This document shows positions 1,033 to 4,000 of a stretch of DNA of 64,000 bases, piece by piece. Source of the DNA: Bugula neritina (taxonomy: Eukaryota > Animalia > Bryozoa); NCBI GenBank assembly GCA_964035545.1, contig OZ037767.1:19112628-19176627 (forward strand), given 5' to 3'. Within the stretch, counting starts at the first letter, position 1. Every line of letters starts with the position of its first letter. The position numbers and the translations under genes are program-made. The notes under the pieces were generated by a model. That model did not search any database, had not been told where the DNA came from, and saw nothing but the letters and a program-made list of their open reading frames with translations.

Positions 1033-4000
1033 GATATAAAGATCAGGACGATTACTTGGACACCCAGTTTCGACTTCTCCGCGAGGATTTCATCTCAACT
1101 GTTCGAGAAGGAGTTCGAGATGTGAAAAAAAATTTGCATAAAGCCAAATCCGGAAAGCTCAGATGTGACAACTGTAGGGTTTACACAGAGTTTGAAATAA
1201 AGTGTGAAGAATTGACATGGGATGGTAGACTCTGCGTGGTTAGGTATCAGTTTAATCATACCAAATAATATTTAGATTATATCTTGTTTTATTTATAATA
1301 TATTTTGTGCACTTTCACAGTTAGTAGTTTAAAAAAACTATTCACAAAAGTGAAAAGTTATAGAAAATAAGAATTAGCCTCTGATTTTATGTATATATAA
1401 TTACCTTTGACAAAATCAGGGTTAGTTAATGAAATTAAAGTATACTAATTACTTTCTCAGTTGATATATTTTAATTTTTATTTTTGAAGGAAACTTGTCA
1501 TTTATTGAATTTAGTCAACATACTGTTATAATTTTCAGATTTAGGGTCGATGTGCCACCAAGAGAGTCTATTTATCACTAGAGAAACTTCACCAGTTAAG
1601 TCGAGTAGATATCGTTATATTTAATACAAGAATACATAATAAAAGTCCAATGTACAACAGTAATGATACGCACGTCTATTTAGTTTTACAGCACTATCCT
1701 CAACTGAGCTAGTAGCGCGAAGCGGCTACTATTACTTATAAACAGCTTAGCTAATTGGCTAATACATTGTTCCGGGTCAATACGCAACCTTGCGTATTGT
1801 GTTGCTGGTAGCTCCACGAGCCACCACACTGCCCCCTCCAGCAGAAAGCCCACTTTCTGATAAAATAAGATTCACATAAAAAACGTATACTTCGTTGGGG
1901 GATAAGAGAACAGCATAAAAGTATATATAAAAAAAAACAACAACTGGTAAAAAATATACAGGTATATATATCGTGCACTAAGTATAAGCAAGAGAAGGTC
2001 CTATCTACATATAGAGTACGTGCCACCATTACGGTAGGGAATGCCACAGAGAGGTAGGGGAATGAGTAGTAGGGAGTGGTAGGTAGACTCGAGTTAACTG
2101 CGGGCAGCACGCTTCATGCGTTTAATCGACTCCTGTAAGTATTTGAGTTCACTGGAGGCTGCCTGTATTTGTGGGGCCAGCCTGTAGACTTCCTGCTCCA
2201 AGTCATGCGCCCTATCTTCTACCTCACGTAGGTTACGGGCCCAGGGGGACGAGCGAGAGGAAGTTGGTTGCCTGTGTCGTTTCCGCTCTGAGGATGGAAT
2301 AGGAGGAGGGAGTGTATACGCATTTGTGTCTACTCTCTGTAGTACGACACGAGGAAAGGTATGCGGCATGCGTATAGGACTGTGAGGTGGAGAGTTAGCA
2401 GACCGTGTAGGTTTATCTGTGGCTCCAGAGATGAAAGGTCGCGGGGAAGGGAAGCCTTGCTCCAGGCGAGATAGCCGAGCTGAGTCAGTGATGAGTGGTT
2501 TGATGGCATTGAGGAAGGCAGGATATGATGATTCGTCTACTTCATAGACATGTCCTTGATAGCACTGCATAGTACGTTGGTGCCGCAGCAGGTAATCACG
2601 GTTATAGCTATATTCGCCGCAAGGGCAGAAAGTGGTGATGTAATGCTGCGGCAAGTGCACCTTTAGTCTGCGGTGGGTTGTGAATCGCTGCTGGCAGAGG
2701 TTGCATTCACGATTACTCTCACCTCCTTGATGGGTCCTGATTTCCCTCTCTGTGGCAGGGGTAATCCAGTTGGAGGTTGCTTCCAACTGGGGTGGTAATT
2801 GCCTGGTGGTAGGAGTTGTTGGGGCCGGCTCTGGGTCCCATGCCATCTCTAGAGAAGGCATGTCCGTAGAGACGGTTGCGAGTGTGTCTACAAAAGTAGA
2901 ATTATTGTTAGATCGCGGTGGATCTTTACAACATAATTCTAGTGATTGTCGGCCGTTGCTAGCCTGAGAGTCACAGCTTTTGGAATGCACTCGAGGAACT
3001 GATGAATCATGTGTGGACTGACCAAGAACAGTGTCTAGCTCCAGGTCTAACAGACCGTCGGCCATTACAGTGTCTTCATCGTCATTCACATGAAACGTGG
3101 TTCCCAGTAATTCTGATTCAATCTGCTGAATTAGTTCAGAATTTACTGGCATCGAGCCCGTTTCCATGAATAGGAATACAAGACTTATACTGGCTTACCT
3201 GGGAACTCGGTATTAATGTCCATACTCAACGTTCTTGGTAAGGTTGGAGCTGGTTGTGGGATACGTCTGCCTTTGGCGATGTCAGCATAAGAAAAGGCTG
3301 AGCATCGTTTCTGAGGCACGAGGTCGGAACTATTTGCTTTACGCGCATTAATTCCTCCCACTATTCCGCCCTCGCAAAAGTTGATATTTGCGTGGGGTTC
3401 ACAACTCCAACATTTCATCGTACGGCTTTCCCCTAGACTTTCATGTGCGCCGCTTCTAATGCAGTCACATATGAAGTCTTTCAAATACGGTGGGGGCTTC
3501 CTCGTACGCTGTCCCCTTTCTAGGGGGGGTGACACGCTTGCCGGCTCGTTAGTAGGGGCCTCTAACGGCGTCTCTACTTCACCGTTAGTGGTCACCTCTT
3601 CTTGTTCTCCGGATGGAGCCCCTCCCTCCGTGGGGGTTTGCACTTCCGGAACCGGCTCGGTTTCTGGAAGTGATGGAATTTGACTTGGCGGTGGCGGACA
3701 CGCTTCTGTTGACAAAAGCTGCCGCTCCTCTCTCACCAAGTTTTCCTCCCGCGGTATGACCACTTCGTATTCAGGTCCATGCCGCCGTCGCCCGCGCGTC
3801 GTTGTCTGCCTCCTGGGCTCTAACAACGGGGGGGCTTCTCCCACTCCGTCAGGGCTAGCCCAATACGGTTTCAAGCGAGACTCATTCTGAATAGACACCT
3901 GTCCTGAGCGCTCAATCTTGTACGTATGATTGGGCATAGCCTCGACGACCACGTAGGGGCCTACGAACTTAGGCTTCAGCTTATCAGCCTGTCCGCGGCG

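Follow-up and report, generated by a model that had tools for sequence, protein, structure and literature searches.

The question raised by this locus is what kind of protein is encoded by the third gene of a Ty3/Gypsy element, located between pol and the 3' LTR, and whether this protein could regulate the element that carries it. The window is the whole stretch of DNA analyzed, 64,000 nucleotides of Bugula neritina contig OZ037767.1, and all coordinates below are window positions. A complete Ty3/Gypsy LTR retrotransposon lies on its minus strand and carries gag, pol and ORF3, with a GC content of about 55% compared to near 32% in the surroundings. Its parts are as follows.

1520-1523, no strand: TSD, 4 bp, with the second copy at 8967-8970
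1524-1828, minus strand: 3' LTR, 305 nt, TG..CA, identical to the 5' LTR
1829-1839, minus strand: PPT, abutting the 3' LTR
2094-3167, minus strand: ORF3, 357 aa, ATG start, stop included
3185-7855, minus strand: pol (PR-RT-RH-IN), intact, overlapping gag in a different frame
7762-8628, minus strand: gag, 288 aa from its own ATG
8643-8660, minus strand: PBS, downstream of the 5' LTR
8662-8966, minus strand: 5' LTR, 305 nt, TG..CA, identical to the 3' LTR

The TG..CA LTRs, TSD, PBS, PPT, PR-RT-RH-IN order and an RT whose nearest solved structure is that of Ty3 place the element among the Ty3/Gypsy LTR retrotransposons. Pol contains the Pfam domains RVT_1, RT_RNaseH, Integrase_H2C2 and rve, and its two best PDB matches have E values of 2e-96 and, for the entry named Ty3-G Gag-Pol, 8e-96. 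Gag gave no Pfam match, and the PBS is presumably of the tRNA-Leu type. The identical LTR pair and the 4-bp TSD together indicate that the insertion is very recent. An intact ATG-initiated ORF of 357 aa between pol and the PPT, flanked by identical LTRs, had been noted in the preliminary description and was confirmed. The ORF3 ATG is 17 nt past the pol stop codon, and the ORF ends about 255 nt short of the PPT.

Other features were recorded in the window. Exons of a ZNFX1-like helicase (9440-9895 and 12402-12770, plus strand; Pfam ZNFX1 at E 1.4e-12, AAA_11 weak) adjoin the element just past the 5' LTR, with the element in antisense orientation, and a frame at 996-1268 on the opposite flank gave no Pfam match. 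An inverted repeat pair about 20 kb apart (17466-17814 and 37644-38368) is approximately 90% complementary, contains 31-nt tandem units, and may derive from a non-autonomous DNA element present in two copies. The window also contains a minisatellite array with a 22-nt unit and about 18 overlapping matches (33809-34402), a tRNA-Val(AAC) gene (49834-49908, minus strand) and a MITE-like inverted repeat with 144-nt arms separated by 87 nt (56014-56388).

In the structure model, the ORF3 protein begins with an acidic segment and continues through disordered sequence into a folded module (approximately residues 122-246), which a basic linker connects to a terminal helix. The corresponding segments are listed here.

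3018-3167, minus strand: acidic N-terminus, aa 1-50, 12 D/E and 0 K/R
2430-2804, minus strand: two-finger module, aa 122-246, conserved core of about 110 aa
2271-2285, minus strand: basic patch, aa 295-299, candidate NLS, aligned with a basic patch in close relatives
2100-2246, minus strand: C-terminal coiled coil, aa 308-356, 13/14 a/d positions hydrophobic

These segments agree with the acidic N-terminus and the coiled coil of the preliminary description, and its statement that a signal peptide and TM segment are absent also held, as the highest 19-residue Kyte-Doolittle-type hydropathy value in ORF3 is 0.56. The lack of a hydrophobic segment argues that ORF3 is not env; in addition, no env family was matched in Pfam and the folded part is zinc-finger-like. 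A short helix is predicted at residues 8-21 with moderate confidence, and residues 1-50 are a candidate activation domain. The coiled coil contains a proline at position 332 and was modeled with pLDDT values of 84-97 by block. The homodimer model scored 0.02, which is too low to count for or against pairing.

The module consists of a Trp/Thr helix, a C2H2 finger, a C-x-C finger, a Val-Asp strand and helices. Finger 1 is regular (C-x2-C-x12-H-x3-H; C155, C158, H171, H175) and has a hydrophobic residue at helix position 6. Finger 2 is atypical (C181-x-C183...H196...C202), and the five residues between the fingers form a predicted strand that is not of the TGEKP type. Compared to a classical C2H2 array, ORF3 has the regular finger in finger 1 only, and lacks both the TGEKP linker and a regular second finger. 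Pfam detected C2H2 similarity below threshold only (finger 1, 15.7 bits against a cut-off of 25.2), and no enzymatic or chromatin-reader domain was found by Pfam. PDB sequence matches to finger 1 reached E 1.5e-6 over about 23 residues.

The module was modeled from 40 diverse sequences with a pLDDT of 96 and a pTM of 0.86. Foldseek searches of the PDB and of viral models gave no match to the module at E <=0.001, a result that does not by itself prove a new fold. In a wider structural search the top 16 neighbors were all zinc-finger/DNA complexes, with Z scores of only 2.9-3.6, and the superpositions spanned both fingers only (about 50-57 residues, rmsd 2.4-4.1). For the predicted module, neighbors at Z <=3.6 show only generic fingers. 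Matches in the ESM Atlas were confined to unnamed or generic C2H2 clusters. The ORF3 model has only two folded parts, and no G-protein-like match was listed in its structure searches. The weakness of the Pfam, Foldseek and structural matches suggests that the module is a two-finger unit with flanking elements of its own, for which no named family was found.

Homologs were collected to assess the breadth of the family. The first search returned 55 ORF3 homologs at 34-73% identity, 10 of which cover at least 98% of the query, most of the 55 lying on short contigs. A search of the full library gave 213 representatives of 50%-identity clusters at E <=0.001, the best 150 of which were examined. These numbers refute a one-off capture of a host gene, which the preliminary description had named as a possible objection. 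A close ORF3 alignment found no related locus among metagenome and viral contigs, and the integrase found none among viral contigs.

Conservation was measured in 76 domains retained after clustering at 60% identity, with a few labeled rows kept regardless. Residues C155, C158, H171, H175, C181, C183 and H196 are conserved in 95-100% of these domains, V210 and D211 in 91-92%, W134 in 87% and T139 in 82%. Basic residues of the finger 1 helix are also conserved (R/K166 80%, R/K167 75%, R/K169 73%). The fourth ligand of finger 2 is a cysteine in just 55% of the 76 divergent domains. The proposed pair of C2H2 and C2HC fingers was thus upheld for finger 1, whereas finger 2 is present in atypical form.

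The layout outside the module was scored in those of 74 divergent proteins that were long enough. The N-terminus is net-acidic in 28 of 35 scorable members and not in the other 7, the linker is net-basic in 24 of 31, and a coiled-coil-like C-terminus was detected in 26 of 30 by a heuristic of our own, compared to 10.5% of shuffles and 0/29 proximal segments. The transcription-factor-like layout seen in the window is therefore kept in divergent members. The NLS-like patch fared less well: it is present at residues 295-299, but NLS-type basic patches occur in 19/31 family tails compared to 47% of shuffles. As an NLS motif the patch would be weak, with sequence frequencies barely above those of shuffles.

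Selection was assessed on ORF3 alone, without a matched pol comparison, using the 40 best-supported of 45 variant sites. Synonymous changes account for 23 of the 40, whereas substitutions of the same types would be expected to give 12.0 (P about 4.5e-4). Read in the two shifted frames, the sites gave 7 and 11, and none of the 40 listed variants creates a stop codon. The excess in the ORF3 frame points to purifying selection and opposes the neutral evolution that would have undermined the original claim. Run X1 contributed 390 contigs on ORF3 that covered 30/30 bins with no indel listed; one low-depth joint skips 340 nt of ORF3.

A degenerate finger pattern identified 28 loci, each of which was checked with the domain profile. 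Only one, L022, is a clear, if remote, homolog (domain E 1.6e-29), and it is the one locus for which full genomic context beyond the window was covered. Three loci (L011, L015 and L021) had weak matches over short stretches (E about 3e-5 to 6e-5) with no pol match and were set aside; the other 24 gave no domain match. Positions 1-4530 of L022 (minus strand) have the order ORF3-PPT-LTR-PBS-gag-protease start, with a purine run directly 3' of the homolog. This arrangement, read from sequence, suggests a tandem or collapsed element. The L022 PBS has the same motif as that of the window with one base different, and its gag is 41% identical to the window gag over 150 aa. The LTR-like stretch is about 720 nt, longer than the 305 nt of the window, and the two LTRs have no common match longer than 9 nt. 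L022 gag also contains a CCHC-like knuckle that is absent from window gag, and the L022 ORF3 frame is 726 aa with an internal repeat.

Linkage to pol was also observed in 3 of 269 proteins (P0181, P0091 and P0165), where pol-tail sequence is joined to ORF3 sequence. To judge from the sequences, these joins probably arose through deletions. In the sister copy P0181 the pol tail is in frame with ORF3 and the join falls at about the position of a predicted acceptor; this join may be of deletion or spliced origin, which are indistinguishable here. Three further proteins (P0169, P0192 and P0208) have an integrase-tail-like motif upstream of the module in the same frame, and their IN core is absent. 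We take the motif to be a Gypsy IN tail, and it also resembles the tail of the window element. The read-through tail of P0199 resembled the pre-LTR region by eye; it gave no tblastn match and was excluded. The preliminary description had asked whether homologs always lie between Gypsy pol and a 3' LTR. Gypsy linkage was found for L022, P0181, P0091 and P0165, but "always" is unlikely, given four clusters with bryozoan gene names. The selection signal and the L022 linkage bear out the claim of an element-encoded accessory gene, and the sequence evidence supports ORF3 as a real, conserved, element-linked accessory gene that is not env.

The bryozoan names emerged when 30 homologous proteins were looked up, 26 of which are unnamed or "hypothetical". 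The only named module homologs are XP_067940964.1 and XP_067944745.1 from Watersipora subatra and KAF6040922.1 and KAF6040923.1 from B. neritina. All four are true homologs of the module and some have a coiled-coil-like C-terminal helix, as does ORF3. Unlike ORF3, they are annotated as host genes and some contain two copies of the module. The two Bugula genes carry consecutive locus tags. Three of these genes, P0139, P0210 and P0211 from Watersipora and Bugula, have in common an additional N-terminal domain, about 50 aa long and without annotation (E about 1e-7 to 1e-9); this suggests that the hosts conserve a family of such genes. Because the named homologs are bryozoan genes, the domain is common to the element and to hosts. 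These names alone also point to a bryozoan as the probable host of the window. In a quick tree, the annotated host genes split between two positions amid element-linked members; 38 of its 73 inner branches are open, and a single origin would also be compatible with this placement.

Three strong donor-like sites are predicted on the sense strand of the element. Those relevant to ORF3, with the acceptor-like sites, are listed here.

8581-8587, minus strand: phase-1 splice donor (predicted), following gag codon 14
3194-3200, minus strand: phase-1 splice donor (predicted) in the last codons of pol, 11 nt ahead of its stop
3112-3148, minus strand: acceptor-like CAG sites in early ORF3; first exon bases 3145 and 3112, phase 1

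The acceptor-like sites at 3145 and 3112 are in frame with both predicted donors. The donor heptamer also ends the host exon-bearing frame (9890-9896); it occurs 19 times in the window compared to 12.7 expected, a count equaled or exceeded in 7/100 shuffles and thus without clear enrichment. The check for a spliced ORF3 RNA, proposed in the preliminary description, gave no positive result: among the 15 of 90 joints listed for the short, shallow RNA contigs, none was such a splice joint. RNA run X2 yielded 4 shallow contigs on ORF3 covering 13/30 bins, which, as DNA carry-over is possible, do not count as proof of transcription.

The function that we tentatively prefer, at somewhat less than even confidence, is that of a nuclear regulator which binds the LTR DNA of its own element, pairs by the coiled coil and activates through the acidic N-terminus. 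ORF3 would be expressed from its own ATG or from a spliced gag-leader message, and the protein would be imported into the nucleus. There the two-finger module, itself a predicted fold, would bind LTR DNA, the coiled coil (likewise predicted) would pair or oligomerize the protein, and the acidic N-terminus would activate LTR transcription. The conserved acidic/basic/coiled-coil polarity and the DNA-bound finger pairs among the nearest structures favor this LTR trans-activator. Against it stand the non-classical fingers, the weak basic patch and the lack of an evident motif common to the two LTRs, and acidic disordered regions are common in any case. The strand-like five-residue linker, the hydrophobic helix position 6 and the C-x-C finger fit binding to RNA or to the nucleic acid backbone equally well. 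Moreover, the best-characterized Gypsy precedent, CERV, is described as dispensable for transcription and as acting in RNA export (PMC10309623). An RNA role is possible for ORF3, if on the whole doubtful: translated from a spliced message, a factor of the CERV/Rev type would oligomerize on unspliced element RNA for its nuclear export or stability. The phase of the gag donor (after codon 14) matches that of two ORF3 acceptors, splicing to a gag leader would parallel the N-terminus common to cerv and gag, the ORF3 fingers are basic and atypical, and CERV likewise combines a Cys finger with a potential zipper and a candidate NLS. However, the joints listed for the short, shallow RNA contigs include no such splice joint, the donor heptamer is not clearly enriched, and CERV reportedly has no homology beyond nematodes and differs from ORF3 in its domains (PMC10309623).

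The proteins with an integrase-tail-like motif bring up a role in integration, which we consider improbable. In this reading the module, as a partner of integrase or an extension of it, would tether insertion to DNA or chromatin much as a chromodomain does; it could be linked to IN through splicing of a short intron or act in trans. The in-frame IN-tail-like motif in P0169, P0192 and P0208 and the donor near the pol stop, whose phase matches that of the ORF3 acceptors, are consistent with such a role. These three proteins have no IN core, however, and a search for long proteins gave 2 matches, neither with rve; the window ORF3 has its own ATG, which is conserved among close relatives, and the bryozoan host genes keep the module without IN. 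Those host genes, some with a coiled-coil-like C-terminus, would suit an anti-silencing factor (the second option of the preliminary description) or a decoy, in which ORF3 competes with a related host zinc-finger repressor or poisons it via the coiled coil; the many variant copies in run X1 also fit. We regard this as quite improbable, as repression of elements by the host genes would have to be presumed and ORF3 lacks an enzymatic or chromatin-reader domain by Pfam. A host family with the module in two bryozoan genera, together with the small number of close homologs covering at least 98% of the query (10/55, though mostly on short contigs), could also point to a captured host gene carried as a passenger without benefit to the element. 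This is very unlikely in view of the synonymous excess, the 95-100% conservation of zinc ligands over 76 domains and the same position before the 3' LTR in the remote element L022. The preliminary description had missed the RNA-export and integrase-linked alternatives and the sharing of the module with host genes.

The ORF3 protein family appears to be new, and so do its breadth and its overlap with host genes. No description of the family was found in the literature searched by title and abstract start; Repbase and Dfam, which lie outside that search, may note such ORFs. The same literature contained no paper on Gypsy LTR retrotransposons in bryozoan genomes. The main texts of the mollusc and annelid LTR surveys PMC6238403 and PMC8556966 contain neither "ORF" nor "zinc", and nothing on the ORF3 family appears in the available parts of PMC2774666 and PMC6338049.

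A characteristic trait of the complex retroviruses of vertebrates is that they encode dedicated trans-activators of transcription. Such trans-activators, including foamy virus Tas/Bel1 and HTLV Tax, are encoded by 3' accessory genes, are nuclear and activate their own LTR, and Tas, which is a DNA-binding protein, contains an acidic activation region. They belong to another virus family, no viral model matched ORF3 structurally at E <=0.001, and a Tas-like function of ORF3 is hypothetical. A broader proposal would be that a marine-invertebrate Gypsy lineage as a whole encodes a Tas-like, sequence-specific LTR-activating transcription factor on an undescribed two-finger fold and that bryozoans domesticated this factor repeatedly as cellular zinc-finger genes; we think this unlikely, though conceivable. 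The 305-nt LTR and the 357-aa protein form a small testable system for the question of whether self-activation arose independently outside Retroviridae, and the module common to the element and bryozoan genes represents a case of element-host zinc-finger exchange.

Among cellular proteins, ZBTB7A, Kaiso and SALL4 resemble ORF3 in having a standard C2H2 finger, and their two-finger arrangement superposes weakly. ORF3 differs from them in its short non-TGEKP linker, atypical finger 2, extra flanking helices and strands, and scores below Pfam cut-offs. Among retrotransposons, bdelloid LTR elements resemble the window element in carrying an extra non-env ORF between pol and the 3' LTR, although the ORF3 products there comprise GDSL esterases, DEDDy exonucleases and TM/coiled-coil proteins, and the main text of the source does not contain the word "zinc" (PMC5408684). 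The earlier statement that third ORFs are typically env-like was therefore overstated, since non-env ORF3s are documented there. Similarly, the suggested undescribed class of "complex" Gypsy elements holds for the protein family, which appears new, but not for the concept, which is already known, as are non-env ORF3s. The concept is represented by CERV of Cer1 in Caenorhabditis elegans; in the literature searched, no other nuclear accessory protein of a Gypsy element has had its function tested. CERV is an essential nuclear protein that unspliced RNA needs in order to be exported, and transcription does not require it (PMC10309623). Like ORF3, it is an accessory protein encoded by the element, and it combines a possible leucine zipper and a basic stretch that may serve as NLS with a Cys-rich finger. 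As described in that paper, CERV is a 517-aa protein with H/M/G domains of G-protein-like fold and a C4-type loop, produced from a five-exon mRNA that shares exons with gag. ORF3, in contrast, consists of one 3' ORF, and its module pairs a C2H2 finger with a C-x-C finger.
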